A DNA stretch of 64,000 nucleotides from an uncultured delta proteobacterium (GTDB lineage Bacteria > Desulfobacterota > Binatia > Binatales > Binataceae): NCBI GenBank assembly GCA_963806485.1, contig CAWDXY010000001.1, positions 192,599 to 256,598 on the forward strand, given 5' to 3'. Position numbers and translations under genes: made by a program. Positions 4,292-51,834 of this stretch are shown one piece after another. The notes beneath the pieces were generated by a model that saw only the letters and a list, made by a program, of their open reading frames with translations, was not told the origin of the DNA and ran no database searches. Every line of letters begins with the position of its first letter. Within the stretch, counting starts at the first letter, position 1.

Positions 4292-4316
4292 GACTTCGGC
4301 ATTCTCGGTCGCGGCG

Positions 4317-7400: not shown

Positions 7401-10400
7401 TTGCAACGCAGCCTGAAAGAAGCAGCCGGCGAACTCGAAGCGCGGCTCGCGGCAAATCAAGAACGTCGGTTCCCGGTGATGGGACTGCGTGGCGTGGCCG
7501 GCGCGCTGATGATTCGCGAGATGCGGATGCGGCTGACGCGTCCGATCGTCGCGGTCACGTCGACGGCGTTGGAAGCCGAGGCGCTGGCGGGAGAGGTCGC
7601 GTTTTTCCTCGATGAGGCGGCGGACGCGGACGCCGCCACGCGCCGGGTGCATCTGATCCGCTCGTGGGAAGTAAAGCCGATGGCGCAATTGTCGCCGCCG
7701 ACCGACGCGCAGGCGTCGCAACTGGCGGCGCTGTTCGCGATGCTTCGGCATGAGTCGCCGCTGGTCGTCACGTCGGCCGAAGCGCTGATGACGCGCACGA
7801 TTCCGCGCACGGTGTTCAACGAATCGATCGTCAAGGTCGCGATTGGCGATCGGCTGGATCTCGAGGCGCTGGTCGAGGCGCTCGCGGCGTGCGGCTATCA
7901 GCGGGTCCCGCAGACCGAAGAGGCGGGCGACTTCAGCGTGCGCGGCGGTATCGTCGATGCGTTCTCGCCGTTGTACCGCGACCCGCTTCGCATCGAGCTG
8001 GAAGACGATCTGATCACGTCGATACGGCACTTCAACGCCGACGATCAGCGCTCGGGCGCCGAGTTGGTTGAGGCGACGATCACGCGCACCCGCTACGTGC
8101 CGCCGTCTGCGCTGAAGGACCCGAAGCTGCGTGAGCAGGTCGTGTTGCGGGCTGCGGAAATCGGGATGGTGCGCAAAGAGGCCGCGGAATTGTCCGAGGC
8201 GCTCGAGAACGGGCTGCTGTTTCCGGGCGCGGAACTGCTGATGCCGTATGCGTACGGGCGCGCGCTCGACAGCGTGTTCGATTACATGCCGGCGGGCACG
8301 CTGCTGTGGCTGGTCGATCCGGGGCGCGTCCTGGCCGAGGCAAATCGCTTTGCAGAAACCGTAAACAATGAGACCGCGGCGGCGGCGCACAAGCCTGCGT
8401 TTCATCCCGCGCCGGACTCGCTGTTCCTCGGTGCGGACGCCTTCGAGCGCGCGCTTGGAAATTTCACCGCGGTCGAGGTCGGCTCGCTGGTGACGATGGT
8501 AACGCCGCGCGAGGGATGGGCTGCGCCGGTCGAGGTCAAGTCGCAGGCGAGTCTGCGGCTCGGATCGAACCAACTGAGCGGAGTGCGGACGCCGCCGAGC
8601 TTCGAGCCGCTGGCGACGGAACTGCGCGAAGTCCAGCGCGGGCAGGGTCGCTCGTTGATGATCGTCGAGGGTCCCCATCAGGTCGCGCGCCTGCGCCGTC
8701 ACCTGGAGGCGTGGGACCTCGAGGTCAACGTCGAATGCAAGAGCCTGGCGGCGCTGATGGAATGGCCGGATTACCGGCCCGCGATCATGGAGGGCGAGAT
8801 TTCGGCCGGCGTCGTTCTGCAGGACGACGGTCTCTACATCTACAGCGAGGAGGAAATTTTTGGCGAGCCGCGAGTGCGGCGGCGCCGGCGTCCGACCGCG
8901 AAGGGCGCGCTGCTCAATCTCGAGGAGCTGAAGCCCGACGATTTCGTCGTGCATATCGATCACGGCATCGCGAAGTACCGCGGCCTGCGCCATATGAAGG
9001 TCGCCGACGTCGAGGGCGACTTTCTGAATCTCGAATACGCCGGCAACGACACGATGTACGTGCCGGTCGAGCGGATAAATCTCGTTCAACGATATATCGG
9101 CGGCGACAATGCGGAACCCAAGCTCGACAAGCTCGGCAGCGGCTCGTGGGAAAAGGTAAAGCGGCGCACGCGGCAGGCGGTGCTCGCGATGGCGGCCGAG
9201 CTGCTCGACATTTACGCGGCGCGCGAGGTGATGGAAGGGCACGCATACCCGGCGCCGGGCGCTGACTACGAGGAGTTCGCGTCGCGCTTCGAGTTCGAGG
9301 AGACTCCCGACCAGCAGTCGGCGATCGATGACGTTATTCGCGACCTGACGCGCGCCAAGCCGATGGACCGCCTGATCTGCGGCGACGCGGGCTTCGGCAA
9401 AACCGAAGTCGCGCTGCGCGCGGCGTTCATCGCGGTGATGGATGGCCGGCAAGTCGCCGTGCTGGTGCCGACGACGATCCTCGCCGAGCAGCATTGGAAC
9501 ACGTTCCGCGAGCGCTTCAAGGATTACCCGGTGCGCGTCGAGATGGTCTCGCGGTTCCGCAGCCACAAGGAAAATCGCGCGGTGATCGAGGAGGCCGGGC
9601 GCGGCAAGGTCGATATCGTCATCGGGACGCATCGCCTGCTGTCGAGCGACGTGCAGTTCCCGCGGCTGGGCTTGCTGGTGATCGACGAGGAGCATCGATT
9701 CGGCGTGGTGGATAAGGAGCGAATCAAGAAGCTCAAGAAGCTGGTGCCGGTGTTGACGATGACGGCGACGCCGATTCCGCGCACGCTGCACATGGCGATG
9801 CTCGGTATCCGCGATCTCTCGGTCATCCAGACGCCGCCGCCGGACCGCCAGGCGATTCGCACCTTCGTCGCGCATTTCGACGACGCCACCATCCGCGATT
9901 CCATCCTGCGCGAGCTCAACCGCGGCGGCCAGGTGTTCTTTGTTCACAATCGCGTCGAGAATATCGACTACATGGCCAGTCATCTGCGCTCGCTGGTGCC
10001 CGAGGCCAGGACCGCGATCGCGCACGGCCAGATGAAGGAACGCCAGCTCGAGGACGTGATGCGCGATTTTATCGAGAAGCGGGTCAACGTGCTGGTCTGC
10101 AGCGCGATCATCGAGTCGGGCCTCGATATTCCCAACGCGAACACGATGATCATAAATCGCGCAGATCACTTCGGTCTCGCGCAGCTGTACCAGTTGCGCG
10201 GCCGCGTCGGGCGTTCGCGCCAAAAGGCGTACGCGTACCTGCTGATTCCCGGCGAGCACATCATCACGCGCGACGCCAAGCGGCGAATCGATGCGCTGCG
10301 CGAGCTGGTCGAGTCGGAGAGCGGCGGCGGCTTCAAGCTCGCGATGGCCGACCTCGAGCATCGCGGCGCCGGCAACCTGCTCGGCCATGAGCAACACGGA

Positions 10401-10976
10401 GAGATCGCGGCGGTCGGGTTCGAGCTCTACACCGAGATGATGGAAGAGGCGATCGCCGAGCTGCGCGGCCAGCCGAGTCGCCCTGACTTCGAGCCCGAGC
10501 TGCGAATCGCGGTGCCCGCATACATTCCCGAGGCTTACGTTTCCGACGAGAACGAGCGGCTGGTACTCTATCGGCGGCTCGCGCGGGCGCAGCGTGAGGA
10601 GGATCTCGGCGAGATTCGCGACGAGATGCGCGATCGGTTCGGCCCGGTGCCGACGCTCATCGAAAATCTGATCGCCGCGATGAACGTGCGGCGCCAGATG
10701 AAGCAGCTTATGATCCTGAGCGCGATTCTCAAGGGCTCGCAGCTGGAGATCAGATTTCATCCCGACGCGCCGGTGGACACCGCGCGGCTGGTGAAGCTGG
10801 CGGACCAGAATCGGCGCACGATGCGGCTGACGCCGTCGTACCAGGTGATCGCGCGGATCGAGCCCGCCGAATACCAGCAACTGTTCGCGCAGCTCGACGG
10901 TGTCTTGCAGGCACTGGCGGGCTGTGAAAAGTTGGAAAACTGGCCGGCCGTGAAAGTCGGGCCGGCCGTCAACTAG
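7401..10976 (+). CDS. mfd: Transcription-repair coupling factor
   Basis: UvrB-like N-terminus (RGGIVD), CarD-like VVHIDHGIAKY, GDAGFGKTEV, DEEHRFG, QLRGRVGRS, C-terminal TRCF domain. Confidence 0.97.
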   Translation: MQRSLKEAAGELEARLAANQERRFPVMGLRGVAGALMIREMRMRLTRPIVAVTSTALEAEALAGEVAFFLDEAADADAATRRVHLIRSWEVKPMAQLSPPTDAQASQLAALFAMLRHESPLVVTSAEALMTRTIPRTVFNESIVKVAIGDRLDLEALVEALAACGYQRVPQTEEAGDFSVRGGIVDAFSPLYRDPLRIELEDDLITSIRHFNADDQRSGAELVEATITRTRYVPPSALKDPKLREQVVLRAAEIGMVRKEAAELSEALENGLLFPGAELLMPYAYGRALDSVFDYMPAGTLLWLVDPGRVLAEANRFAETVNNETAAAAHKPAFHPAPDSLFLGADAFERALGNFTAVEVGSLVTMVTPREGWAAPVEVKSQASLRLGSNQLSGVRTPPSFEPLATELREVQRGQGRSLMIVEGPHQVARLRRHLEAWDLEVNVECKSLAALMEWPDYRPAIMEGEISAGVVLQDDGLYIYSEEEIFGEPRVRRRRRPTAKGALLNLEELKPDDFVVHIDHGIAKYRGLRHMKVADVEGDFLNLEYAGNDTMYVPVERINLVQRYIGGDNAEPKLDKLGSGSWEKVKRRTRQAVLAMAAELLDIYAAREVMEGHAYPAPGADYEEFASRFEFEETPDQQSAIDDVIRDLTRAKPMDRLICGDAGFGKTEVALRAAFIAVMDGRQVAVLVPTTILAEQHWNTFRERFKDYPVRVEMVSRFRSHKENRAVIEEAGRGKVDIVIGTHRLLSSDVQFPRLGLLVIDEEHRFGVVDKERIKKLKKLVPVLTMTATPIPRTLHMAMLGIRDLSVIQTPPPDRQAIRTFVAHFDDATIRDSILRELNRGGQVFFVHNRVENIDYMASHLRSLVPEARTAIAHGQMKERQLEDVMRDFIEKRVNVLVCSAIIESGLDIPNANTMIINRADHFGLAQLYQLRGRVGRSRQKAYAYLLIPGEHIITRDAKRRIDALRELVESESGGGFKLAMADLEHRGAGNLLGHEQHGEIAAVGFELYTEMMEEAIAELRGQPSRPDFEPELRIAVPAYIPEAYVSDENERLVLYRRLARAQREEDLGEIRDEMRDRFGPVPTLIENLIAAMNVRRQMKQLMILSAILKGSQLEIRFHPDAPVDTARLVKLADQNRRTMRLTPSYQVIARIEPAEYQQLFAQLDGVLQALAGCEKLENWPAVKVGPAVN

Positions 10977-10980
10977 ATTG

Positions 10981-12285
10981 ATGCATAACAGAAGATTGTC
11001 CCGGCGTGCCGGCGCGCGATGCGTCTGCGGCGGTGCCGACTGCGGCGGTGCCGACTGCGGCGGTGCCGACCGCGGCGGCGCCGGCGTGGCGGCGGCGTTG
11101 TCGGTGTCGCTGGCGTTGGTCCTTGCCTGCGCGGTTTCCGGCTGCTCGATAGATTTTCTCAAACCCGATTCTTTCGGTTACTCGCTTCTGAAGCAGGCAA
11201 CCTCTTCCGCCGTCAACCCGCCGCAGGCGCCAACGGTGCCGCGGGAGGAGGAGGGAGCGTCCAACCCCACGCGGACGGCGAAGATAGTTCCGGCTTCGGG
11301 TGAGAGTGACCTCGCGGATGCGAAAAATGACGAACCGCCGCCGCCGCCCGCGGTAGAACCGGCGCCCGATGCCGATGAGGACACGGAGGCGAGCGCGCCG
11401 GCGGTGGATCGAGTCGTCGCCAGCGTTGACGGCGATCCGATCACGATGCGGGAGGTCAAGGATTTCGCGTCGCAGCATGGCCAGCCGATCGAGACCGACG
11501 ATTTCGCTTCTTCGGACACCGCCAAGACCGCAGTGAAGGCGTTGATCGGCGAGAAATTGCTCGAACAGGAAGTGAAGAAGTACGATGACAAGGTCGACGA
11601 AGAGCAGGTCGACAAGTACATCACGCAGTTGCGGATGGACAAGCACTTGAGCGATGCGGAATTTCGCGCGCAACTCCAGGCGAGCGGGATGAGCTACGAT
11701 GAATTGCGCAAACGGGCGCGGCTGGATCTCGAAAAGGCGATGATGATCGAGTCCGAAGTGCGCGCGAAGATCAACGTGCCCGACGCCGACATCAAGACCT
11801 TCTACGACGCCCACAAGGAAGACTTCACCGTCGCCAAGGAACGGCTCAAGCTCGCGCAGGTTCTGATCGCGCTGCCGCCCGACCCGACGCCGGCGCAAGT
11901 GTCCGTCGCGCGGAAGAAGGCCGACATGGTTCGTGCGCGCGCCGTCAAGGGCGATGACTTCGGCGATCTGGCGCGCGTGTACTCGGATGACGACTCGAAG
12001 TCCAGCGGCGGCGAACTCGGATGGTTCGCGCCGGCCGACATCAATGATCAGATCCTGGCGGCGGTGAAGCCGCTCAAGCCCGGCGAAGTCTCGGCGCCGG
12101 TCCGCACCAGCCACGGCGTTCATATCGTCAAGCTCGAAGAACACGAAGTGCCGGGCCTCGTGCCGCTCAACGACGTCAAGGCGCAGATTCGTGCTGAGCT
12201 GGTCGATCAGCAATCCAGCGCGCAGCTCGAGAAGTGGATTGAGTCGGATCTCGTCAAGCAGCACTACGTCGAGACCATGTACTAG
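10981..12285 (+). CDS. surA: SurA-like parvulin peptidyl-prolyl isomerase / chaperone (probable lipoprotein)
   Basis: VSGC lipobox, DRVVASVDGDPIT SurA N-domain, GDDFGDLARVYSDD...GGELGWF...GVHIVK; directly upstream of pdxA. Confidence 0.85.
   Translation: MHNRRLSRRAGARCVCGGADCGGADCGGADRGGAGVAAALSVSLALVLACAVSGCSIDFLKPDSFGYSLLKQATSSAVNPPQAPTVPREEEGASNPTRTAKIVPASGESDLADAKNDEPPPPPAVEPAPDADEDTEASAPAVDRVVASVDGDPITMREVKDFASQHGQPIETDDFASSDTAKTAVKALIGEKLLEQEVKKYDDKVDEEQVDKYITQLRMDKHLSDAEFRAQLQASGMSYDELRKRARLDLEKAMMIESEVRAKINVPDADIKTFYDAHKEDFTVAKERLKLAQVLIALPPDPTPAQVSVARKKADMVRARAVKGDDFGDLARVYSDDDSKSSGGELGWFAPADINDQILAAVKPLKPGEVSAPVRTSHGVHIVKLEEHEVPGLVPLNDVKAQIRAELVDQQSSAQLEKWIESDLVKQHYVETMY
11026..11085 (+). 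repeat. In-frame 15-bp tandem repeat (tgcggcggtgccgac x3 plus one degenerate copy)
   Basis: Perfect copies at 11026, 11041 and 11056; degenerate cgcggcggcgccggc at 11071; encodes CGGAD repeats. Confidence 0.9.
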
Positions 12286-13335
12286 ATGATGGCCGCGCTC
12301 AGACGAAAGACGCCGCCCCTGTTGGCTGTCAGCATGGGCGATCCGGCGGGCGTCGGGCCCGAGGTGATCCTCAAGGCGGCGGCCGCGCTTGCGAGCCGCC
12401 GCGGCGCGCCTTCGATAGTAGTAGTCGGCGACCTGTCCGCGATGCGCGCGGCGGCGTCCCGCCTGCGCGGCGTGCCAGCGCCCTTACCGTGGCGCCGGGG
12501 TGAGCCGCCGGTTCGCCTGACGAAGGGACTCGGCGTACTTTCGATCTCGAATTTGTCGGCGAGCGCAATTCGCCCGGGCCATCCCACGGTTGAGGCCGGC
12601 GGCGCGGCCTATGACTACATCGTAACTGGTGCGCGGATGGCGATAAGCGGCGAAGTTGACGCTCTTGTGACCGCGCCTATCAGCAAGGACTGGATGAACC
12701 GCGCGGGGCACCATTTTCCCGGGCATTCGGAACTGCTGGCGCATCTGGCGCGAGTCCGGCTGTGGCGCATGATGTTCGCGGGCGGCGAGCTCACGGTCGC
12801 GCTGGTGACTGCGCACATGGGATTTGCAAAAGTGGCGTCTGCGCTGACGCGGCGCAATGTTTTCGACACGATTCGCTTGCTCGCGACGCATTTGCGCGGC
12901 GCGCTTGGCGTTGCGCGTCCGCGAATAGCGGTGCTCGGGTTGAATCCTCATGCGGGTGAAAGCGGGATGTTCGGTGACGAGGAAATCCGCGTGATCGCGC
13001 CGGCGATTCGGCGCGCAAATCGCGACGGCATCGACGCGTACGGGCCGCTGTCGCCCGACACCGCGTTCATCCGCAAGGCCGGCGCGTTCAATTTTGACGC
13101 GGCGGTTGCGATGTATCACGATCAGGGGTTGATTGCGCTCAAGACGCTGGAGTTCGACCGCGCGGTGAACGTGACGCTCGGCTTGCCGTTCGTGCGCACC
13201 TCGCCCGATCACGGCACGGCGTTCGATATTTCAGGCAAGGGAATTGCAAATCCTTCGAGCATGATTGCCGCGATCGAATATGCGTGGCGGGCCGGATTGA
13301 GCCGCGAAAAGGCCGCGCGGCGGGCGGCGGCGTAG
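12286..13335 (+). CDS. pdxA: 4-hydroxythreonine-4-phosphate dehydrogenase
   Basis: [42 protein letters not shown]. Confidence 0.96.
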
Positions 13336-13341
13336 GCAACG

Positions 13342-16176
<2,835 letters not shown>

Positions 16177-43805: not shown

Positions 43806-44195
43806 ATGAAGCAGATTCCGAGCGGAACAGAACTCGCCCGGCCATTCATGCCCGCGAAAGACTTTGATCTCTCCAAGAACTTCTATGAGACGCTGGGTTT
43901 CGAAAAACTTCTTGACGGAGATGTGGCGATCTTCAGGGCCGGTTCCAGTGGTTTCATACTTCAACGCTACTATCAGAAGGACTGGGCTGAAAACTTTATG
44001 ATGCAGCTCATGGTCGATGATCTTGACGCCTGGTGGACGCACATTGAAGGGCTTGATCTGCCCGGAAAATTCAAGGTTCAGCCGCCGCGCGCGCCGGCCA
44101 TGCAACCATGGGGCCTTCGGATCGCGTATGTCGTGGATCCATCCGGAGTGCTTTGGCACATCGGCGAACGGCGCAGGGGCGCAATACAAGACTGA
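43806..44195 (+). CDS. VOC/glyoxalase family protein
   Basis: RPFMPAKDF..S..FY..LGF, QPWGLR...VVDPSGVLWHI; GGAGG RBS. Confidence 0.88.
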   Translation: MKQIPSGTELARPFMPAKDFDLSKNFYETLGFEKLLDGDVAIFRAGSSGFILQRYYQKDWAENFMMQLMVDDLDAWWTHIEGLDLPGKFKVQPPRAPAMQPWGLRIAYVVDPSGVLWHIGERRRGAIQD

Positions 44196-44238
44196 CGGCA
44201 CTCCGCTCAACTGTTCGAGAATGCGATGATCGTCGAAC

Positions 44239-44316
44239 ATGAACGCCGCCATCGTGACGGGCGCTAACACCGGATTGGGCTTCGAATGCGCCCGAGCGCT
44301 CGCTGAGCGCCGCGAT
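44239..44316 (+). pseudogene. 5' remnant of a short-chain dehydrogenase/reductase
   Basis: MNAAIVTGANTGLGFECARALA (TGxxxGxG) followed by unrelated AT-rich sequence. Confidence 0.7.
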
Positions 44317-44593
44317 GTTGAAGCTGAGACCCGACGAAACAGTTCTAAGGCCAGGATCGGCTCCGTCGGCAGCATAACGGTGCTTCCTAATACATATCTA
44401 GTAGTATTCTCAGTTGATTATATTTCCTCTGACTTGACACTAGTAAATTACTAGTTCAAGCTACATAGAGCCGGAATCGATATAAGAGTCGAGTCCCGAC
44501 CTGATCCAGCCTGACAGTGGCCGTTCCGCTCGCCTTTGACCACGTTCCGCTAGACCAACCTCATTAGTACGATCGCAAGGCTTGAGGAGGCCC

Positions 44594-44998
44594 ATGATGG
44601 CACCACCTCGTCGCCACCCTTTCCGCGCCAATCTGTCCGCCGGGGCCGAAAAACTGAGCTTGCTCGCGGGGCTGACCGCCGGCCTCGCATACTCGACCTT
44701 TGCGAGCTTCTTTGCCAATGCTCTCACTCCCGTCAGCGCGCATCTCGTCGAAGCGGATTCATTTCGCCGCATGGTCTCGGGCCACTATCGGGAAGTTCTG
44801 AGCCTCGACGGCGCGACTTCGACCGTGCTGGTGTCGCTGATCGTTTTTGTCCTGGTCTGGTGGTCTACGCGCGTGATTCTGGAGAACTGGAATCGCGAAG
44901 ATTGGGGACGCCTCGATTCAATAGACCGAAGCCTGTCCGGTGGGCCGTTGCTCATACCAGTGACAGTCGCACCGCTGGCATCGGCGGTGAGTAAGTAA
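44594..44998 (+). CDS. Hypothetical two-TM membrane protein
   Basis: GAGGAGG RBS; two hydrophobic segments. Confidence 0.6.
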   Translation: MMAPPRRHPFRANLSAGAEKLSLLAGLTAGLAYSTFASFFANALTPVSAHLVEADSFRRMVSGHYREVLSLDGATSTVLVSLIVFVLVWWSTRVILENWNREDWGRLDSIDRSLSGGPLLIPVTVAPLASAVSK

Positions 44999-45042
44999 AT
45001 TCGCACAAACCAAATCTCAATTCACTCACAGGAGAATGACTC

Positions 45043-45222
45043 ATGAATGGAACAACTGACAAAGTTAAAGGGCGCGTCGAAGAAGCGGCCGGCGTACTGA
45101 CTAATGACAAGAAGCTGAAAAATCGCGGCAAGATGGATCAGGCCGCCGGCAACGTCAAGGATGCGATCGGGAAGACGATCGACAAGGCGGTTGCGGCTGT
45201 CAATCACGACAAGAAGCACTAG
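45043..45222 (+). CDS. CsbD family stress protein (59 aa, missed by the ORF track)
   Basis: MNGTTDKVKGRVEEAAGVLTNDKKLKNRGKMDQAAGNVKDAIGKTIDKAVAAVNHDKKH*; AGGAG RBS. Confidence 0.88.
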   Translation: MNGTTDKVKGRVEEAAGVLTNDKKLKNRGKMDQAAGNVKDAIGKTIDKAVAAVNHDKKH

Positions 45223-45291
45223 TAGTTCCTGACTCCGCCGCCAATTTCTTCCTCAATATCGGCCATGCGCCGAGCCGAAATAAGATTTGGA

Positions 45292-45320
45292 GCCCCCGCC
45301 CATCCAGGATGAGCGGGGGC
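45292..45320. terminator. GC-rich hairpin between convergent genes
   Basis: gcccccgcccatcc-a-ggatgagcgggggc; lacks a strong U-tract. Confidence 0.45.
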
Positions 45321-45341
45321 ATGCCATAACAATAAGCCGGA

Positions 45342-46556
45342 TCAATTGAACAGGTTGAGCTGATTCTCGGAATCGTCGACGAAGTAGATGCCGCTTCCGT
45401 CCGGCACTACCGCGAGTCCAAACAGAGCACCCGCTCCGGCCGGCGCTATCGTAGCCGCCGTTTGAGTGCCATGCGGAGTTGTCTCGACGATATTTCCGTC
45501 GCTGGCGTTAACGGTGAGGATGTCGCCGTTGGGCGCAAGCGTGAGTCCGAGCGGCATCTTCAGCGAACCGCCGGTACTAACAGTGTCTCCGATTCCGGCG
45601 CTGGAGCCGCGGTGCGACGCGCCGTCAATTCTTGCAATGCGGCTGTTGACCGTATCGGCGACATAGAGTGTGTTGCCGTTGTCACCGTGCGAACGGCCGA
45701 CGCCCGCATCACCCGAGAGGCCGACGCCGGTCGGTCCAATGATCAGTGCCAACGGGTCGTTCTCTTCGGCGAACCCCGAACCGATGACCTGCGTTTCCAG
45801 GACGGCCGGCTTTCCAGATCCTTGCGGCGGATTGGACAACGTCATCCTGGCTACCGTCCCCGCGTTAACCGGGGTATCAGCAGGGGCGCTCGCGACAGTG
45901 CCATTCAGCACGTTGGTGAAGAACAGCTGCGCTTTGTTTCCATCCTCACTGGCAGTCATGTCCCATGGCCCATCAATGACGCCGCCCGAAAAAGTCTCGA
46001 CCGGATTGCCGTTCGCGTCGAGCACGATAAGGCATCCCGCGCCCGCCGTGGCGATAGTTCCATCGGTAGTCGGCAAGCTGCCTACAATTACCCATCCGGT
46101 TTTCAGCACGACCAGCGCCGTCGTCAGTCCCACGCCTCCAGGGCAGCCGCCGGGAAGTGTGCTCGCATCGATCTCAGCGAAGGTGGACTGGGTCTGAACG
46201 TTAGGTGCGTACTGCACAATCGAGCTGCCGGTCCCCTGTAGATTACCTGACGGCGGCGCGCCAGCATTGTTGAAGTTGCTGACCAGGATGTTGCCCTCGG
46301 CAAGGCTGCCAACCGTTTGAGGGATGACTGCCACTCCATAAGGATTCTGGTCACCAACTTCGAACCCGGCCGCAGGCGTGGACGTCGTACCCTGCGTGAC
46401 TGTACTGAAGTTGTTGATGAACGGCTCAGACCCATGCCCGTGGCCTTGCTTGGGGCCGTGCGCTAATGCCGCCGACGCGACAAGGCCGACTAGCGCCCCC
46501 GCTGTCATCATTGACACTGCTACTCTTCCGAGGCTCTTGCGGTTTTGTGTGTTCAT
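45342..46556 (-). CDS. Secreted beta-propeller-like (NHL-like) hypothetical protein
   Basis: Signal peptide, His-rich mature N-terminus, repeats NPYGVAV / GPWDMT / GPTGVGL / PLGLTLAPNG / LFGLAV; AGGAGG RBS. Confidence 0.75.
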   Translation of the reverse strand: MNTQNRKSLGRVAVSMMTAGALVGLVASAALAHGPKQGHGHGSEPFINNFSTVTQGTTSTPAAGFEVGDQNPYGVAVIPQTVGSLAEGNILVSNFNNAGAPPSGNLQGTGSSIVQYAPNVQTQSTFAEIDASTLPGGCPGGVGLTTALVVLKTGWVIVGSLPTTDGTIATAGAGCLIVLDANGNPVETFSGGVIDGPWDMTASEDGNKAQLFFTNVLNGTVASAPADTPVNAGTVARMTLSNPPQGSGKPAVLETQVIGSGFAEENDPLALIIGPTGVGLSGDAGVGRSHGDNGNTLYVADTVNSRIARIDGASHRGSSAGIGDTVSTGGSLKMPLGLTLAPNGDILTVNASDGNIVETTPHGTQTAATIAPAGAGALFGLAVVPDGSGIYFVDDSENQLNLFN

Positions 46557-46691
46557 AGCACTTCGGTTCCTCCTTGAATTTCCGGCAAAGTGCGTTTATG
46601 AGACCCCCCAGGTCTCGTGGGCATTAAAAAGGCTACCCGCCTTCCAAACCGAGTCAAGTTGAACTCTGAAAGTAACCATCGTTAAGACCGC

Positions 46692-47126
46692 TTACTTCAC
46701 TACCACTTCACCTGTCATTCCGGACGTTTCATGGGGCGCGCATATGTACTTGTAGGTCCCCGGCTGGGTGAAGGTATAAGTGAAGCTCTGGCCCGGCTGC
46801 ATGAAGCCCGAGTCGAACGGCTTGACGCCCGCGGGATTGCTCACGTCGGCAGGATTCACCGCGGCGGACGGATCGCTGGAAGCGTGATGCACCGAGTTGC
46901 CGACGTTTTTCCACTCAACGGTCTCACCGACTCTTATCGTGAGTTTTGCCGGCTCATAAGTCGCTGGCATATCGATCATCTTTACGACTATTGGGGGCGT
47001 GGACGCGGCCGCGCTTGTGAGATGCACTCCCACAAATGCGGCGATAGCTAGTACGGCGCCAATGCCCAGCACTCCCAGGCCGACCAGGTAACGCGGTACC
47101 CTTCTGCTTACGACTCTGTATTGCAT
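46692..47126 (-). CDS. Plastocyanin/azurin-family blue copper protein
   Basis: N-terminal TM/signal; GETVEW.N....H and Y.CAPHETSGM.G.V.V give the type-1 Cu ligands H, C, H, M; GAGGAG RBS. Confidence 0.92.
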   Translation of the reverse strand: MQYRVVSRRVPRYLVGLGVLGIGAVLAIAAFVGVHLTSAAASTPPIVVKMIDMPATYEPAKLTIRVGETVEWKNVGNSVHHASSDPSAAVNPADVSNPAGVKPFDSGFMQPGQSFTYTFTQPGTYKYICAPHETSGMTGEVVVK

Positions 47127-47158
47127 ACTCCTCGCTCCTTCGCATTTGCGCGTTAGTA

Positions 47159-47443
47159 TCAACGCGCTTGCTTTAGAAATTCCGTAATGGCCCTGATGTC
47201 TTTGGCCGGCATGATCGACTGTGTGCGCATATGCATCGTTATCGCATCCCACTGGGCAGGCGAAAACTGGGATCCAGGCCGCGCGTTGTGGCACTGAGCG
47301 CAGTAGACCGGCCACAGCTTGGCGCCCGTGACAAATAGCTCTCGCTGCTCTTTGCTCTGTTCTTCCGAGGCGATACCTATGCCTGGTTTCATTGTGGCTA
47401 TAGCCAGTGCGAACACGAGCAAAGCACCTTTCCTCTTCCACAC
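47159..47443 (-). CDS. Small periplasmic monoheme cytochrome c
   Basis: Signal peptide; GAKLW..YCAQCH, W.....HM (distal Met), I.EFL. Confidence 0.9.
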   Translation of the reverse strand: MWKRKGALLVFALAIATMKPGIGIASEEQSKEQRELFVTGAKLWPVYCAQCHNARPGSQFSPAQWDAITMHMRTQSIMPAKDIRAITEFLKQAR

Positions 47444-47454
47444 GCCTTAAAGCC

Positions 47455-48975
47455 TCAAAATCCAATCGACAATTGTGTCAGCAGCGCCTTATCGTTAGCA
47501 GTCGCGTCGATCGCGCTTACCTTGGGAGTGCTGGCTCCGTTGAACGAAACCAGCGAACCACCGGTCCGTGGCAGCTCCAGGTCGAACTCGGTCTGCCAGA
47601 CAATCGACGGCTCAATCCAATAGTCAATTCCGAAAGCCACTTCTCGCGCATGCGGACTGAATATCGACGGCGAGCCGCTGAACCCTACTGCTGGAGCCGT
47701 AGTTACTTCGTCCGCCACAATCGCGCGTTGATTGACGCCCGAATAACGCGCCAGCAGCTCGAGCCGTCGAAGCGCGTTGTCAAGGTCATCGCTGATACGC
47801 GTCGAGGGCAGATGCTGCAGGAAGTACCCGGCCTGTACGTACCACCCTTGCCGGTTATCGGGGCCTGAACCTGCCGGCATCTGCCGATAACTCTCTGCAT
47901 ACTCGGCGCGCGCCTGTAAGTCCTTATATAGGTACGCGGCGCTCACTCCCCACGAGTAAAACCAGTTGGAGTCGAGCCATTTTCCGTCGTAGGTCGAAGC
48001 GCCCACTTCCAGACGGCCTAGCCCTGAATCAAGTGGAAACGGATAGAAGCGGAATCGTCCGCCGAAAGCTCGCCCGTTGGTATTCAGCGCAATGTTGTTT
48101 TCTGGATTGAGAGTCTGGCCGACGACTGGCTTTGGCAAAGTGGGGTCATAACTCGGCCCATTAGCTATCCAGGTTGTATAGTCAACGTCCTGCCCAAGCG
48201 CGCCCCACTGCACCGAACCCCGTAGCTGCACTCCTATGTCGGTTGGCGGAACGATCGGCTCGGCGCCATATAGGAGCGGGGCCGTTATGAAACGATTTAC
48301 CCACAATGGGCTTTGATCTTCGTACCAATCGCCAAAAGGCTCGTCGAATATCCCCGCGTTAACCTCCAGGTAATCGTTCAGAAATATCTGCGCGGTCGCG
48401 ACGGGCAGAGTAAAACTCGCTCCCGAACCCGGTGGCAGCGAAGCCTGGATCGTACCCTCGAATAGAATCCAGTCGTTGAGCCGATATAGGATGAGGGGCT
48501 CGAACTGGAGCGAGAAGGTGTTCTGCGCGGTCTGTTTATCGTAGATGAAGGTGCCTGCCGCCGCGCCGGTGAGTGTGAACTGATGCGCGCCGAGGTACTG
48601 GCTCATTTCTGATTGGAAATCTGCCTGCGAAGTCTTCGCAGCGACTTGAGTCTGCAGTTCCTGCAATTTTTGATCGGTGTCGCTCATGAATTTAGTATCG
48701 TTGATTTCCAATGTGTTCGCGGTTTTCCCGATCTTCTGATTTTGTGTTTCGAGGCCTTTTAGCTGCTTCTCCAGCTCCTCGATGCGCCTTTCGTCTTGCT
48801 CGACGCGCTTGCGTTCAGCCGCCTCAGAGCCTTTGAGCGTGGTGATTTCCTGTCGAAACTGAACGAGATCGTTGGCCTTGCTGCCATCTTCCTCCTCAAG
48901 GGCGATGCGAGGCGCGATGAACAGCATCATCGCGATCGCAAGCGTGGTCGCTACTCGATGTCCCCCGAATGCCAA
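47455..48975 (-). CDS. Outer-membrane beta-barrel (porin-like) with an N-terminal coiled coil
   Basis: Signal peptide, ~90-aa coiled coil, amphipathic beta-strands (G.FD.PFG, GWYVQAGY, LELLARYS, GIDYW), C-terminal Phe (LSIGF). Confidence 0.8.
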   Translation of the reverse strand: MAFGGHRVATTLAIAMMLFIAPRIALEEEDGSKANDLVQFRQEITTLKGSEAAERKRVEQDERRIEELEKQLKGLETQNQKIGKTANTLEINDTKFMSDTDQKLQELQTQVAAKTSQADFQSEMSQYLGAHQFTLTGAAAGTFIYDKQTAQNTFSLQFEPLILYRLNDWILFEGTIQASLPPGSGASFTLPVATAQIFLNDYLEVNAGIFDEPFGDWYEDQSPLWVNRFITAPLLYGAEPIVPPTDIGVQLRGSVQWGALGQDVDYTTWIANGPSYDPTLPKPVVGQTLNPENNIALNTNGRAFGGRFRFYPFPLDSGLGRLEVGASTYDGKWLDSNWFYSWGVSAAYLYKDLQARAEYAESYRQMPAGSGPDNRQGWYVQAGYFLQHLPSTRISDDLDNALRRLELLARYSGVNQRAIVADEVTTAPAVGFSGSPSIFSPHAREVAFGIDYWIEPSIVWQTEFDLELPRTGGSLVSFNGASTPKVSAIDATANDKALLTQLSIGF

Positions 48976-49255
48976 TCCCGAATTCTCCTTCCAGTAAAAA
49001 ATACAGGATCGGCGATCATCGAATTCACGATCCGGCTCCCTGCTGAACTCACGCGCGTGAGATTTGGTTCCCGCGATTCAAAAGCCGAACGGCGAGTCCC
49101 AAAAAATATCGCGACGACTTCGATCGACCATCGACTTTTCATACCTTTCCGGCTTTCGAAGTCTGGCCACAAATGATAAGAGTGCGCCGTTGGTTTTGTT
49201 GACGCGTGATATGAGGGCAAACCGTACGGGGATTACGATCGCCGGGAGAAAAATC

Positions 49256-49519
49256 ATGCCGCAAAAGATACGCAGCACTCTCTGGACCTCAACCGCATCG
49301 GGGCTGTTGATCACGGTCTTGACATTCTCAGGGTGTTCGATGTTTTCCGCGTCGAATGTACCTGTCGATTGCGACGTTGTGAAAACCCAGGTCGCGGCCG
49401 GACAGACCGACGCTCAGATCGCATCTAACTTGAATGCCCAGGTGGATCAGGTTGCGGCCTGCCACGGTCCTGAGACCGGAGGCAACAAGAACACAGTAAT
49501 CCCCGAGAAAGGCTACTGA
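49256..49519 (+). CDS. Small hypothetical lipoprotein
   Basis: Hydrophobic stretch plus FSGC lipobox, two further Cys; GGAG RBS. Confidence 0.65.
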   Translation: MPQKIRSTLWTSTASGLLITVLTFSGCSMFSASNVPVDCDVVKTQVAAGQTDAQIASNLNAQVDQVAACHGPETGGNKNTVIPEKGY

Positions 49520-49620
49520 CCCCTGATACCGCCATCTGCGTAAGAACGCTTCGCGATCGACGGGCTGGGCGGCCGTCCTGGAAGATTCTGGTCTCGCTCG
49601 CGACGGCGGTCTTTCTGTGC

Positions 49621-51834
49621 ATGAGCGCGGCCTTCGGCGCGCCGGCCCCGCCCTCTCCCAACGAGTCCACGCTCGAGCGCAGTTTCGACGCGCTCATTCA
49701 CCCGGACGATCTGCGCGACTGGATGAAGCTGCTCGCCGCCCAGCCGAACCATGTCTCCTCGCCGCACGACAAGACTAACGCCGACCAAATCCTCGCCTGG
49801 TTCAAGAGCTGGGGCTGGGATGCGCACATCGAGACTTTCTGGGTGCTGTACCCCACTCCTATCACGGAGACTCTCGAGCTGGTCGCCCCACAAAAGTTCA
49901 GCGCCACGCTGCAGGAGCCACCCATTCCCGGCGACTCCAGCGCGACGGCAACCGATCCCGCGCTTCCCGCCTACGTCGACTACCAGCGCGACGGCGACGT
50001 CACCGCCGGCCTCGTATACGTCAATTTTGGGATGCTCGACGACTATAAGACTCTCGAGCGACTCGGTGTAAGCGTCAAGGGCAAAATCGTCATCGCCCGC
50101 TACGGCGCCGGATGGCGCGGGTTGAAGCCCAAGCTCGCACAGGATCACGGCGCGATTGGCTGCATCATATACTCTGACCCGGCCCAGGACGGTTATTCCG
50201 TCGACGAGACTTATCCTAACGGTCCTATGCGTCCGCCCCACGGTGTGCAGCGCGGATCCGTGCTCGACATGAGTCTCTATCCTGGCGATCCCTTGACGCC
50301 CGGGATCGGTGCGACTAAGGATGCGAAGCGCCTGAAGACGTCCGACGCGCCTACCATAATAAAGATTCCCACTATACCTATTTCCTATGCCGACGCTCAG
50401 GTCTTTCTGGCGGCCATCGCAGGCCCCGTAGCTCCGCAAGCATGGCGCGGGGCGCTGCCTATAACCTATCGAGTAGGACCGGGGCCCGCGTTAGTCCATC
50501 TGGCAGTGAAGTCCGATTGGCAGCAACAACCTATCTATGACGTCATTGCGAGCATGAAAGGTTCGACCTGGCCGGACCAGTGGGTAGTGCGCGGCAATCA
50601 TCACGACGGCTGGGTGTTCGGCGCCACCGACCCTTTGTCGGGCCAGGTCGCGCTGCTTGCCGAGGCCAAGGCTTTTGGCGGTCTCGCCAGGCAGGGTTGG
50701 CAGCCCAAACGCACGATCGTTTACACCAGTTGGGACGCCGAGGAGCCGATGATTCTGGGATCGACCGAATGGGCGGAGGATCACGCCGCCGAACTTAAAA
50801 AGAAGGTTGTCCTGTACATCAACTCGGACTCGAACGGACGCGGCTTTTTGGAGGTGGGTGGAAGCCAGGACTTCCAGCACCTGGTGAACGAAGTCGCCGC
50901 CGACGTAATCGATCCTGAGACCGGTGTTTCTATTGGCCAGCGGCTGCGCGCGAAAGTGCGTGTAGCTGCGCTCGCACCTGGTGCCAGCGAGCACCTGAGG
51001 GCTGTGGCGAAGATCGCGGCGGACCCGGATAAGGACTTTCCGATCGAGGCGCTGGGGTCGGGCTCCGACTTTTCAGCATTTCTCGATCACTTGGGTCTGC
51101 CGGTGCTGGATGTCGGCTTCGGCGAAGAGGGACAGTCCGGCGGCGTCTACCACTCTCGCTATGACACTTTCGAGCATCACAGCCGCTTCGTCGATCCGGG
51201 CTTCGTGTACGATGCGATGCTGGCTAAAACGGTCGGCCGAATAGTGCTGCGTGCAGCCGATTCCGATCTCCCTCTCCAGGATGCAACCGCTTTCGCGAAT
51301 GCTGTCTCGGACTATCTGGATCAAGTTAAGAAGCTCGCCGATGACGAGCGCGAGGAGGCCGAGACTCAGTCTAAGCTCCTACACGACCGCGCGTTCCAGC
51401 TGGCCGCCGACCCCACCAAGTCGAGCGGCCTGCCCACGGCGCTCGACCGCGTCCCCCATCTAGAGTTCGCGGCACTGGAAGACGCCGTCGATCGCCTGAA
51501 GCGCACCGCCAAAGCCTATGACGATGCGCTGGCGAAAAACGCCTCACACCTATCCAGCTCCCAGATAGCACAAGTGCAGGCCCTTATGATCAACATAGAC
51601 CAGACCTTGGCGCCCGAAAATGTAGGCTTGCCTGGTCGGGACTGGTACAAGAATTTGATCTATGCCCCCGGTCGCTACACCGGCTACGAAGCTAAAACCT
51701 TACCCGGAGTCCGCGAGGCAATCGAAGACCGCCGCTGGTCCGACGCCAACCGCTACGCCAAACTAACCGCCGACGCGCTAAATGCATACAGCGACCGCCT
51801 GAACCAGGCCACAACCGTACTCAACGGCAGCTAA
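49621..51834 (+). CDS. M28 peptidase, glutamate carboxypeptidase II / transferrin-receptor-like
   Basis: PA domain (GKIVIARYG, YSDP), GNHHDGW, GATDP.SG, WDAEE, GSGSD, YHS.YD, C-terminal dimerisation domain; true start probably further upstream. Confidence 0.9.
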   Translation: MSAAFGAPAPPSPNESTLERSFDALIHPDDLRDWMKLLAAQPNHVSSPHDKTNADQILAWFKSWGWDAHIETFWVLYPTPITETLELVAPQKFSATLQEPPIPGDSSATATDPALPAYVDYQRDGDVTAGLVYVNFGMLDDYKTLERLGVSVKGKIVIARYGAGWRGLKPKLAQDHGAIGCIIYSDPAQDGYSVDETYPNGPMRPPHGVQRGSVLDMSLYPGDPLTPGIGATKDAKRLKTSDAPTIIKIPTIPISYADAQVFLAAIAGPVAPQAWRGALPITYRVGPGPALVHLAVKSDWQQQPIYDVIASMKGSTWPDQWVVRGNHHDGWVFGATDPLSGQVALLAEAKAFGGLARQGWQPKRTIVYTSWDAEEPMILGSTEWAEDHAAELKKKVVLYINSDSNGRGFLEVGGSQDFQHLVNEVAADVIDPETGVSIGQRLRAKVRVAALAPGASEHLRAVAKIAADPDKDFPIEALGSGSDFSAFLDHLGLPVLDVGFGEEGQSGGVYHSRYDTFEHHSRFVDPGFVYDAMLAKTVGRIVLRAADSDLPLQDATAFANAVSDYLDQVKKLADDEREEAETQSKLLHDRAFQLAADPTKSSGLPTALDRVPHLEFAALEDAVDRLKRTAKAYDDALAKNASHLSSSQIAQVQALMINIDQTLAPENVGLPGRDWYKNLIYAPGRYTGYEAKTLPGVREAIEDRRWSDANRYAKLTADALNAYSDRLNQATTVLNGS

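Follow-up and report, generated by a model that had tools for sequence, protein, structure and literature searches.

A gene pair for a stalked outer-membrane porin and a small monohaem cytochrome c as a candidate split, Cyc2-like redox port

Among described systems, the gene pair reported here comes closest to Cyc2 and Cyc2PV-1, monohaem fusions of cytochrome and porin that occur in Fe(II) oxidisers. Keffer et al. (2021; PMC8406198) have matched the 16-strand barrel of Cyc2 to the OprO and OprP structures and predict that the Cyc2 cytochrome plugs the periplasmic opening. In the Acidithiobacillus scheme summarised in PMC5566968, periplasmic cytochromes c are combined with a blue copper protein and a bc-type complex. 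The pair shares with Cyc2 the one haem c, the OprO/OprP-type barrel of 16 strands and the predicted periplasmic plug, and the proteins that accompany it are of the same kinds as in that scheme. Separate adjacent genes for a barrel and a c-type cytochrome inside it, as in the pair, are known from MtrAB, MtoAB, PioAB, Pcc, PCC3 and Uet, and the Uet cluster holds NHL-repeat proteins too (PMC10734462). These multihaem conduits have larger barrels (26 strands in MtrB; PMC8406198) and membrane-spanning cytochromes with at least ten haems, in contrast to the 16 strands and one haem found here. Among other porins, a coiled-coil stalk N-terminal to a 16-strand barrel is also present in DcaP (6eus), a channel for dicarboxylates, and in OmpM1 (8byt and related structures). 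OmpM carries an SLH domain and tethers the outer membrane to peptidoglycan; we know of no cytochrome partner for either porin.

The window is the whole stretch of 64,000 nucleotides that was analysed, and positions are counted from its first nucleotide. A first-pass annotation had reported four co-oriented open reading frames with gaps of 11, 32 and 135 nt; recomputation from the coordinates gave the same gaps, with all four genes on the minus strand. The features are as follows.

47455..48975, minus strand: stalked outer-membrane porin (ORF of 506 aa, TTG start, C-terminus ...SIGF)
48895..48975, minus strand: likely signal peptide of the porin, about residues 1-27 (MAFGGHRVATTLAIAMMLFIAPRIAL/EEE, by eye; putative boundary)
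48595..48876, minus strand: helical stalk of the porin, residues 34-127 (helices of the AlphaFold2 model)
47458..48582, minus strand: 16-strand beta-barrel of the porin, residues 132-506 (strands of the AlphaFold2 model)
47159..47443, minus strand: small monohaem c-type cytochrome (ORF of 94 aa, about 68 aa mature, single CAQCH)
47288..47302, minus strand: haem attachment motif CAQCH of the cytochrome, residues 48-52 (sequence and family alignment)
47225..47233, minus strand: H71-M72-R73 motif of the cytochrome (invariant in the alignment of both families)
46692..47126, minus strand: plastocyanin-family cupredoxin (144 aa, counted from an internal ATG inside a longer 257-aa frame; PF00127 match)
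45342..46556, minus strand: exported NHL-type beta-propeller (ORF of 404 aa, NHL match)

The host of this locus is a soil bacterium. No RNA run containing the porin-cytochrome locus was found.

The AlphaFold2 model of the porin, built from an alignment of 111 sequences (pLDDT 86.8, pTM 0.75), consists of helices at residues 34-86, 96-113 and 117-127 followed by 16 strands, and the chain ends in SIGF, in agreement with the beta-barrel with a long N-terminal coiled coil and terminal Phe described earlier. In profile searches the stalk region matched coiled-coil families only; the stalk is presumed to be periplasmic and trimeric. Most of the distant porin relatives are likewise built from a signal peptide, then a coiled coil, then a barrel, and Cyc2 is not described as having a counterpart of this helical stalk of about 95 residues. 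A Pfam search of the window porin gave no family above cut-off and only coiled-coil noise, and PF07396, the family of the phosphate/diphosphate porins OprP and OprO, was found in 14-45% of the members of the nearest Atlas clusters, with weak matches in homologues. OprP (2o4v_A; 313 residues, rmsd 4.5) and OprO (4rjw; 305 residues, rmsd 3.5) are nevertheless the closest solved folds, each with Z 26.6 at about 14% identity and about 3 units above general porins; DcaP is the fourth-best match (Z 23.5) and OmpM1 is among the Foldseek matches. Such a barrel does not refute a Cyc2-like reading, because the Cyc2 barrel, too, is reported to adopt this fold and to match both of these templates (PMC8406198). 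Unlike OprP and OprO, the window porin has the stalk, an obligate cytochrome partner and a net acidic barrel region (39 D+E vs 23 K+R, with only 6 Lys). Residues R252, D265, R307, R309, R321 and E323 are invariant among 48 non-redundant relatives.

The second gene had been described as a 94-aa CAQCH/Met cytochrome c, and this description stands: one CAQCH lies at residues 48-52, and C48, C51, H52, M70, H71 and M72 are invariant in the family alignment. The H71-M72-R73 motif is also invariant across the window-type cytochromes and those of a distant family from soil metagenomes, and Met72 is the likely sixth haem ligand. Profile searches matched the protein to solved class I cytochromes c (best E 7.7e-5); in the Pfam search it stayed below threshold (PF13442, 18.5 bits vs a cut-off of 27). 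The window-type cytochrome, a complete class I-like domain of small size, has the motif LW..C..CHN.RP...W..I..HMR and does not carry the Cyc2 signature AXPXFAR[Q/K][T/Y]. Therefore, by comparison with the published description of Cyc2, we read the candidate redox port as an analogue of Cyc2 and not as a split member of its family.

Conservation of gene order shows that the clustering of porin and cytochrome is not chance. Of 37 genome loci, 36 have the cytochrome gene directly 3' of the porin gene, at porin identities down to about 35%, and in the sole exception (L035) the contig ends inside the porin. When the search starts from the cytochrome, all 34 loci have a porin immediately upstream (33 of 33 if L065, from an unpublished genome, is left out). 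The distant soil-metagenome family, with porins about 26% and cytochromes about 48% identical to those of the window, has the small cytochrome in all 56 loci with room downstream. Thus, to the question of whether porin homologues occur without the cytochrome, the answer for close homologues is that they are always paired. The proposed module of four genes fared less well: only 10 of the 37 loci have the cupredoxin and propeller after the pair, so the obligatory unit is the pair. Porin, small cytochrome, cupredoxin and NHL-type propeller do recur together in the distant metagenome family, with differing gene order and fusions. The cytochrome family was found only next to such porins. A distant porin paralogue in the same genome (contig C2, 23% identical) has no cytochrome homologue, and the genome holds only two copies of the 94-aa-type cytochrome, which indicates that the cytochrome tracks one porin clade specifically. 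In seven of 150 listed distant porin representatives, the porin is extended at its N-terminus by a fused class I cytochrome c, which lies beyond the coiled coil. This domain resembles a 120-aa cytochrome encoded in related operons (32% identity, E 6e-12) and not the 94-aa plug (hhalign probability 4%), so the fusions are themselves no evidence of a plug.

Co-folding of the porin with the cytochrome gave ipSAE values of 0.90, 0.91 and 0.90 in three runs, and the best of three controls gave 0.00. The pLDDT of the partners was at least 88, and at least 76% of the contacts were common to the runs. The score mark used is reached by 58 of 80 solved complexes and by 2 of 110 mismatched pairs, counts that apply only roughly to this co-fold with its self-supplied alignments and included haem. 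The porin was modelled as a monomer, whereas its stalk is presumed trimeric, and the score reflects the confidence of the model, not an experiment. The co-fold puts the cytochrome within the barrel at its periplasmic mouth, with contacts all round at the periplasmic strand ends (porin residues 131-136, 163-173, 194-206, 219-226, 252-267, 309-323, 347-349 and 453-457). Cytochrome residues 70, 71 and 73 are listed among the contacts, and 72 is absent from the list. The cytochrome is thus predicted to be the plug of the barrel, and the periplasmic strand ends with the 212-244 loop are predicted to be its binding surface; we infer that it docks from the periplasmic side.

Separately computed covariation agrees with this placement. 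In 66 paired loci (48 non-redundant; 8510 inter-protein column pairs, APC-corrected), the top four pairs all join predicted interface to predicted interface, as do 7 of the top 20, vs 0.88 expected. Label shuffling, which leaves phylogeny in the signal, reached the top-four result in 0 of 20000 trials once and in a fraction of 0.0001 of 20000 on repeat; the signal comes from few evolutionary events among related sequences. The strongest pair, porin 196 and cytochrome 74, is also a listed co-fold contact, and its states are size-compensating (Q-T in 40 sequences, Y-A in 4, F-G in 2, Y-G and H-S in 1 each). Together with the co-fold, this supports the interaction suggested earlier, and we consider it highly probable that the porin and the 94-aa cytochrome form a docked complex.

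These results bear on two alternatives. The porin could be an ordinary solute porin co-transcribed with electron carriers, the cytochrome a free periplasmic shuttle and the docking a modelling artefact. The 16-strand fold is common, with hundreds of general porins at Z 22-23, homologues carry PF07396, most of the 763 wider porin relatives are apparently plain coiled-coil porins without CXXCH, and a co-fold score states only model confidence. Yet the pairing is strict in both directions while the downstream genes change, the cytochrome family keeps to one porin clade, and the controls and the covariation both favour a true interface; we regard this explanation as very unlikely. The cytochrome could also be a removable lid whose redox-dependent binding adjusts solute uptake to respiratory-chain state. 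Its predicted position in the pore mouth, where flux would be blocked, and the obligate pairing are in line with such gating, which would leave unexplained why the pair is constantly accompanied by other electron carriers and by terminal redox enzymes. We know of no precedent for a redox-gated cytochrome lid on a porin, and hold this to be the most improbable of the readings weighed here.

We consider that the docked complex is an electron port with a chance slightly better than even. That the pair is one outer-membrane device that feeds electrons inward, a two-gene counterpart of the single fused Cyc2 protein, is an evenly balanced proposition. In this scheme the mature cytochrome would carry one haem on Cys48 and Cys51, with His52 and probably Met72 as axial ligands, and would dock from the periplasm into the barrel mouth, touching the inward-folded 212-244 loop. 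A small redox-active solute would enter the pore from outside and give up an electron at the plug haem. Fe2+ would be the most likely solute and Cu+ the second; Fe(II) as substrate is nonetheless less likely than not. One haem cannot span the envelope by itself, and the electron would pass to a periplasmic carrier, in the window the type-1 copper cupredoxin, and from there presumably to one of the three haem-copper oxidases of the organism. We infer which solute is used, which way the electrons flow and that the cupredoxin receives them. The split Cyc2-like conduit first proposed is supported by the strict pairing, the barrel fold and the predicted docking, all of them checks named with that proposal. 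Current gene screens would not recognise such a two-gene counterpart of Cyc2.

The cupredoxin (PF00127, E 1.6e-15) has the complete H/C/H/M site claimed for it, with type-1 copper ligands His80/81, Cys129, His132 and Met137 kept in 10 of 10 aligned relatives. It resembles rusticyanin- and plastocyanin-type carriers in this site, and its gene lies near an outer-membrane cytochrome-porin, as in the rus operon. It differs from them in that both models stay below cut-off (plastocyanin TIGR02656, the closest, 63.2 bits vs 87.85; rusticyanin 23.5 bits vs 146.7) and in a long hydrophobic N-terminal segment that may either act as a signal peptide or anchor the protein in the membrane.

After the pair, the 37 loci carry the cupredoxin (10), a Rieske/cytochrome b set (13), a NirK-like set (8), other genes (5) or a truncated end (1). 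In both the NirK-like and the Rieske type the 120-aa cytochrome c comes next; it is followed by a NirK-like two-domain copper oxidase in the former and by a Rieske/cytochrome b/tetrahaem complex with a GltD-like NAD(P) oxidoreductase in the latter. A second porin-cytochrome pair in this genome (contig C3) heads a Rieske/cytochrome b set. The same port would thus stand at the head of further operons, in relatives and once more in this organism, feeding the 120-aa cytochrome c and, beyond it, either the copper oxidase or the Rieske complex and oxidoreductase. The genome encodes three COX1-type oxidases, and a RuBisCO large subunit was not found in it (97% complete), which argues against CBB-type iron lithoautotrophy.

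A rival reading is a copper-handling module. Its pore would admit or release copper ions, and Cu(I) in the periplasm or the pore would be converted to Cu(II), which is less toxic, by the cytochrome and cupredoxin; alternatively, the cupredoxin would be a CopI-like resistance protein. Such a module would serve copper tolerance or cuproenzyme supply and not energy conservation. On contig C4 of this genome a 51%-identical cupredoxin paralogue and a class I cytochrome c lie directly upstream of a heavy-metal efflux system (OEP, CusB-like adaptor and CusA/CzcA RND pump; TIGR00914, 858 bits vs a cut-off of 701), and the distant-family cluster holds an MMPL transporter and a histidine kinase with response regulator whose best subfamily models are of heavy-metal type. 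The paralogue and these regulators point to copper over iron. CopI matches of the window cupredoxin (E 5.4e-4) and the C4 paralogue (E 6.3e-6) are weak and far below cut-off, the NirK-like partner falls below the NirK cut-off (169.8 vs 296.3 bits) and also matches copper-resistance multicopper oxidases, and the barrel region is net acidic. Every heavy-metal family match of the regulators is however under cut-off, 13 of the 37 loci pair with the Rieske/cytochrome b/NAD(P) oxidoreductase set and no copper protein, and the cupredoxin site is of the plain electron-transfer type, with no extra Met/His-rich copper-binding stretch seen in the alignment. We judge the copper module unlikely.

Electrons could also flow the other way, from quinol via the Rieske/cytochrome b proteins and periplasmic carriers to the plug haem, reducing a small oxidant in the pore (chelated Fe(III) or Mn(III), nitrite or oxygen species). 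The sets linked to the pair in those 13 loci are of a quinol-oxidising type, the organism is apparently an aerobic heterotroph, with three oxidases and no RuBisCO, and the best NCBIfam models for the cytochrome b are ExtP and ExtQ, below cut-off. The names ExtP and ExtQ come from an operon in Geobacter that is linked to extracellular electron transfer. Against this, a single haem behind a narrow 16-strand pore reaches small solutes only, and mineral or chelated Fe(III) would be too large by the argument made for Cyc2 in PMC8406198. The high-potential carriers, cupredoxin and His/Met cytochrome, are better suited to uptake towards oxidases or NirK, and we find reverse flow decidedly unlikely.

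The propeller matched the NHL repeat (21.5 bits vs a cut-off of 20) and, weakly, SGL in the domain search. It had been described as a His-tipped repeat protein; the HGPKQGHGHG tip of the mature protein is real, but it is not conserved in relatives. Window-type propeller relatives occur in 6 of the 10 cupredoxin-type loci and a TIGR03118 propeller in 5, one locus having both.

Four co-oriented genes on the minus strand of the window were read in a first-pass annotation as a porin, a monohaem cytochrome c, a blue copper protein and a secreted propeller. Open reading frames (ORFs) were found exactly at the coordinates claimed for them, with intergenic gaps of 11, 32 and 135 nt:

47455-48975, minus strand: porin, 506 aa; ORF with a TTG start and the C-terminus ...SIGF
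47159-47443, minus strand: small cytochrome, 94 aa; ORF with a single CAQCH
46692-47126, minus strand: cupredoxin, 144 aa; the start is an internal ATG inside a longer frame
45342-46556, minus strand: repeat protein (propeller), 404 aa; ORF

The porin ends in the terminal Phe that had been noted for it. The first two genes, the porin and the small cytochrome, form a pair that is widespread in soil bacteria, unannotated and invisible to current marker screens.

Searches of Pfam and NCBIfam with the 506-aa porin returned coiled-coil noise alone, as did the comparison of its profile with PDB sequences (best E 0.009), and its close relatives, many of them from Candidatus Binataceae, bear only 'hypothetical' names. 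An AlphaFold2 model obtained from a shallow 45-sequence alignment (A2) reached a pLDDT of 56.8; it was discarded and kept out of the fold searches. A barrel-only profile retrieved 763 relatives at E <=1e-3, and 58 at 1e-30, from 1.84 billion representatives, and the model obtained from 111 diverse sequences reached a pLDDT of 86.8 and a pTM of 0.75. The long N-terminal coiled coil and beta-barrel suspected in the first pass agree with this model, which places helices at residues 34-86, 96-113 and 117-127, followed by 16 strands between residues 132 and 505. Foldseek matched the model to general 16-strand porins. The highest VIA-align scores were shared by OprP (2o4v_A; Z 26.6, 313 aligned, rmsd 4.5) and OprO (4rjw; Z 26.6, 305 aligned, rmsd 3.5), about 3 Z units above the other matches, the next being the stalked channel DcaP (Z 23.5). 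An ordinary phosphate porin had been named beforehand as a finding that would speak against an electron conduit. The OprP/OprO fold was indeed found, yet it does not do so, because the 16-strand barrel of Cyc2 has itself been matched to the OprO and OprP structures (Keffer et al. 2021, PMC8406198). Cyc2 is also superimposed on OprO in a figure legend of a 2026 review (PMC13741234), and a 16-strand barrel of the OprO/OprP kind is a predicted feature common to Cyc2 and the window porin. The OprO/OprP family model PF07396 has no match in the window porin at E up to 1; some porin homologues carry it (14-45% of the members in the nearest Atlas clusters). Eight arginines are invariant in the barrel among the porin relatives. 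OprP and OprO have an anion-selective lining with an arginine ladder and a lysine cluster. The barrel region of the window porin is, unlike that of OprP, net acidic (23 D and 16 E, together 39, vs 6 K and 17 R, together 23), and simple alternation along the strands, an estimate too crude to decide selectivity, assigns 18 acidic and 9 basic residues to the lumen.

The small cytochrome carries GAKLWPVY-CAQCH, the residues leading into and forming the haem motif, in 35/35 aligned members. After His52 the sequence continues as N-A-R-P-G-S, in which Pro56 is at least 90% conserved and G-S follows, and H71-M72-R73 is invariant even in the distant family described below. Cytochrome models of Pfam score below their cut-offs (PF13442, 18.5 vs 27; PF00034, 17.2 vs 21.3), and the profile of the protein matches solved class I cytochromes c with an E of 7.7e-5.

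Among 37 loci on one-genome-per-species contigs, with porin identities from 85% down to about 35%, the small cytochrome was found directly 3' of the porin in 36, and in the single exception (locus L035) the sequence ends inside the porin gene. From the cytochrome side, a porin lies directly upstream on the same strand in 34/34 loci, or 33/33 without L065, a locus from an unpublished genome. The association thus holds in both directions, contrary to the concern that the porins might usually occur without the cytochrome. The small cytochrome is present in 114/165 Binataceae genomes and in 25/30 genera (110/161 genomes without four unpublished ones, all of which match), and a phylum sample searched with its profile has it in 3/301 genomes, all of one family. 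The source genome holds exactly two copies, each behind a porin, the second pair being located as follows:

Contig C3 602000-617718 (L038), about 6944-13874, minus strand: second pair, with a porin 47% identical to that of the window

A third, distant porin on contig C2 (L039, about 894405-895754) is 23% identical and is without a cytochrome homologue alongside. In public data the family profile of the small cytochrome retrieves 2272 protein clusters, the best name among which is 'mono/diheme cytochrome c family protein'. Longer forms of the 94-aa cytochrome amounted to only two proteins, of 178 and 203 aa, without a porin fusion, which is weak evidence. The porins of L030 and L035, with 44-50% identity to that of the window, come from a bin labelled Candidatus Acidiferrales, an acidobacterial lineage; their presence there could reflect gene transfer or a binning error.

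Co-folding of the mature porin (residues 28-506, alignment A4) with the mature cytochrome (residues 27-94, alignment A1) and one haem gave ipSAE values of 0.90, 0.91 and 0.90, vs 0.00 for the best of three controls, with a partner pLDDT of at least 88 and at least 76% of the contacts common to the runs. The mark applied to ipSAE is reached by 58/80 solved complexes and by 2/110 mismatched pairs, a calibration that is only rough here as our own alignments were supplied and a ligand was included. No solved complex of a porin with a monohaem cytochrome is known to us, and the score is therefore unlikely to echo a structure on which the predictor was trained. On the porin side the contacts comprise residues 131-136, 163-173, 194-206, 219-226, 252-267, 309-323, 347-349 and 453-457. 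If the N-terminus faces the periplasm, as it does in other porins, they correspond to the periplasmic strand ends all round the barrel and the long 212-244 loop, and the cytochrome is predicted to sit inside the periplasmic mouth of the barrel. His52 contacts porin residue 226. Cytochrome residues 70, 71 and 73 are in contact with the wall, unlike Met72, and this suggests Met72 as the sixth haem ligand. The first-pass idea of a separate cytochrome docking in the barrel is thus matched by prediction, and covariation between the two proteins supports it. The co-fold could not have read this covariation, because the alignments were given separately and with different rows. APC-corrected mutual information was calculated for 230 x 37 = 8510 porin-cytochrome column pairs over 66 paired loci, 48 of them non-redundant at 97% identity. 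The top four pairs (196-74, 349-64, 347-64 and 349-50) all join interface columns of both proteins, and pairs of interface with interface make up 7 of the top 20 vs 0.88 expected. Random labels matched the top-four result in 0/20000 trials, at a frequency of 0.0001 in a repeat and of 0.00075 with the cytochrome labels fixed, values to be read with the relatedness of the sequences, the small number of change events and a phylogenetic signal that label shuffling does not remove. The strongest pair, 196-74, is among the 25 contacts named by the co-fold, and its states compensate in size (Q-T 40, Y-A 4, F-G 2, Y-G 1, H-S 1).

In Cyc2 a signal peptide and a cytochrome domain with a single CXXCH are fused N-terminally to the barrel in one polypeptide, whereas the window porin is without CXXCH and the haem motif lies in a separate ORF 11 nt past its stop. 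The Cyc2 motif AXPXFAR[Q/K][T/Y], five residues before CXXCH, is absent from the small cytochrome, and in all six frames of the complete genome sequence no FAR[QKR][TYF] was found with CXXCH in the 12 residues after it. Absent as well is the PXL motif that Cyc2 carries four residues after CXXCH, Pro56 being followed here by G-S. A plug at the periplasmic opening is shared with Cyc2 by prediction only. The MtrAB, MtoAB and Pcc conduits have a barrel of about 20-26 strands threaded by a many-haem cytochrome, in contrast to the 16 strands and one CXXCH of the pair; separate adjacent genes for porin and cytochrome are common to both. The pair is thus outside the Cyc2 family, as set apart by the published motifs and description, and outside the multihaem conduits; its mode of action appears to be that of Cyc2, and its division over two genes that of the conduits. 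No description of the porin and small-cytochrome pair was found in the main texts of open-access journals, and an unfused form of Cyc2 is not mentioned in the available parts of PMC10654088 and PMC5566968.

Neighbours of the pair were clustered over the 37 loci, and representatives were run against Pfam and NCBIfam. Type A sets, in 10/37 loci including the window, consist of a cupredoxin and then a propeller; 6 loci have the NHL type of the window and 5 the TIGR03118 type, one locus having both. Type B sets (13/37) begin with a 120-aa class I cytochrome c and continue with four more proteins, namely a 636-aa GltD-like FAD/NAD(P) and iron-sulfur oxidoreductase, a Rieske protein, a cytochrome b of 433 aa and a 313-aa protein in which CXXCH occurs four times. 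The second pair of the source genome, on C3, heads a set of this type (131-aa cytochrome c, 639-aa GltD-like NAD(P)/FeS oxidoreductase, Rieske protein, 433-aa cytochrome b and 314-aa tetrahaem cytochrome). This combination of a Rieske/cytochrome b complex and an NAD(P) oxidoreductase subunit is unusual. The best NCBIfam models for the type B cytochrome b (L030: 4338-5639) are ExtP, at 252 bits vs a cut-off of 290, and ExtQ, both of which take their names from a selenite/tellurite-reduction operon. In type C sets (8/37) the 120-aa cytochrome c precedes a two-domain multicopper protein of 325 aa, the best match of which, copper nitrite reductase, is below the cut-off (169.8 vs 296.3 bits). Five of the remaining loci have other neighbours and one is truncated. 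The three different downstream architectures indicate that the obligatory unit is the porin with the small cytochrome, and the pair always heads periplasmic or inner-membrane electron-transfer genes.

In the window these genes are the cupredoxin and the propeller. The cupredoxin matches PF00127 (E 1.6e-15, 57.8 bits vs a cut-off of 21.2), and the complete H/C/H/M type-1 site reported for it in the first pass is all there (His80/81, Cys129, His132 and Met137), its ligands being kept in 10/10 aligned relatives. The rusticyanin model TIGR03095 reached 23.5 bits vs a cut-off of 146.7, through the C-terminal loop only. The propeller has a marginal match to the NHL model PF01436 (21.5 bits vs a cut-off of 20, one repeat recognised), and its family aligns with the TIGR03118 propellers of sister loci at an hhalign probability of 29%. 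It had been described as His-tipped; the mature protein does have a His-rich tip, which is not conserved in the relatives.

The same parts are found also in more distant relatives. Among the best 150 of the 763 porin relatives, the layout of most full-length proteins is signal peptide, coiled coil and barrel, without CXXCH, and in seven (P0181, P0211, P0246, P0262, P0263, P0267 and P0272; 491-597 aa) the coiled coil is preceded at the N-terminus by a class I cytochrome c (PF13442). One of these seven is named 'mono/diheme cytochrome c family protein' and the rest are nameless. Such fusions occur also in loci L088 and L090. Related metagenome loci encode this cytochrome by a gene of its own upstream of the porin, so that fused and split forms both exist. 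Membership of the fused cytochrome in the plug family was ruled out, as alignment A1 of the small cytochrome matches P0267 at an hhalign probability of 4%; the fused domain resembles the 120-aa cytochrome instead. Located at the distal end of the stalk, this domain may hold a second haem out into the periplasm. Metagenome contigs queried with P0181 yielded at least 423 confirmed relatives among at least 595 matched stretches, and the cluster in this distant form is common in metagenomes from soil. Across the 80 loci taken, all 47 with room for it have the class I cytochrome c either within the porin polypeptide or encoded immediately upstream, and the small cytochrome lies 3' of the porin in 56/56 loci with room. 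The latter is homologous to that of the window (best 48% identity, E 4e-17). It is followed in 17/24 loci by an NHL-type propeller of TIGR03118, and upstream of the porin 22/31 loci encode a fusion of a cupredoxin with an FG-GAP propeller, the cupredoxin part having 31% identity to that of the window (E 2e-10). The four component types grouped as a module in the first pass are therefore again found together where the porins share about 26% identity, although their order and fusions differ, which argues for a functional module. One such cluster is:

L105: 10-15518: conserved soil-metagenome cluster, with about 20 similar loci among L075-L131

Its order is an MMPL transporter, a CarboxypepD_reg-domain protein, a histidine kinase, a 405-aa protein of no family and an OmpR-type regulator, then the cupredoxin-FG-GAP fusion, cytochrome c, porin, small cytochrome and TIGR03118 propeller, with a TPR protein on the opposite strand.

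Taken as a whole, the analysis makes a split, Cyc2-like redox port the most likely reading, in which a small reduced metal ion would be oxidised at the haem of the plug and the port would then feed the cupredoxin in the window. The pairing supports this first-pass proposal, as do the modelled barrel fold and the predicted docking. The arrangement agrees with the model put forward for Cyc2 (PMC8406198), in which one haem lies behind a narrow 16-strand pore that admits small solutes only, and electrons pass to periplasmic carriers. In Acidithiobacillus, electrons are described in PMC5566968 as passing from an outer-membrane cytochrome to rusticyanin and on to an oxidase, or uphill via a bc complex to NADH. 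Type A resembles the oxidase branch of this scheme and type B, with its NAD(P) oxidoreductase, the uphill NADH branch, and in type C the port would be linked to the reduction of nitrite, provided that the copper protein is a nitrite reductase. The genome (97% complete) has three haem-copper oxidases, and no RuBisCO was found in it, which makes a classical iron lithoautotroph unlikely; a supplementary or protective role is more plausible.

Copper, in place of another metal, is a serious alternative as the substrate of the port. It is favoured by the following locus of the source genome:

Contig C4 220000-233000 (L040), 37-6825, minus strand: cupredoxin paralogue locus, a metal-efflux operon

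Here the genes for a 152-aa cupredoxin, 51% identical to that of the window, and for a class I cytochrome c of 178 aa immediately precede efflux genes, which encode an OEP, a CusB-like adaptor and a heavy-metal RND pump of the CusA/CzcA kind (TIGR00914, 858 bits). The best models for the regulators of the distant metagenome cluster, which are heavy-metal sensors at sub-threshold scores, point the same way. Redox carriers inside a metal-efflux operon are unusual.

The split redox port can also be extended to a proposal that we regard as rather improbable, namely a widespread, unrecognised class of outer-membrane redox ports in soil bacteria, in which each barrel of a trimeric stalked porin would be plugged by a monohaem cytochrome dedicated to it. 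A second cytochrome c, free or fused at the tip of a coiled coil as long as the periplasm, would hand electrons on to a Rieske/cytochrome b complex of the inner membrane equipped with an NAD(P) oxidoreductase. If this were true, a two-haem, protein-scaffolded bridge would lead from the cell surface to NAD(P)H, and the abundant, nominally heterotrophic Binataceae and other soil lineages would gain energy and reducing power from dissolved Fe(II) or other reduced metals. Oxidation of iron and other metals in soil is tracked mostly through Cyc2 and multihaem porin-cytochrome genes, and if the port works as proposed, marker screens keyed to these genes miss a common system. From the modular wiring, with a cupredoxin, a NirK-like protein or a Rieske/cytochrome b/NAD(P) set, it could be learned how a single point of entry serves several respiratory ends. 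Porin and cytochrome are open to separate production, unlike the fused cytochrome domain of Cyc2, for which expression on its own did not succeed (PMC8406198), and the predicted interface offers a covarying residue pair for mutation.

The genes flanking the cluster are unrelated housekeeping or miscellaneous ones. Frames on one flank read as purD, purH and alr, together with a glyoxalase-fold protein, and those on the other are divergent from the cluster:

49064-49519, plus strand: small ORF, divergent; a later Met gives a lipoprotein-like start (…LTFSGC), judged by eye
49621-51834, plus strand: 737-aa protein, divergent; PA, peptidase M28 and transferrin-receptor-like dimerisation domains

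A promoter and terminator scan of 44000-49700 gave three promoter-like sites vs 2.5 expected and nine terminator-like sites vs 5.5, numbers not above chance. The G+C content is 0.57-0.58 over 44-50 kb (44001-50000, the cluster with its flanks) vs 0.60-0.64 on either side, and this low value may be a sign of acquired DNA. A second dip, to 0.54-0.59, occurs at 20-26 kb of the window.
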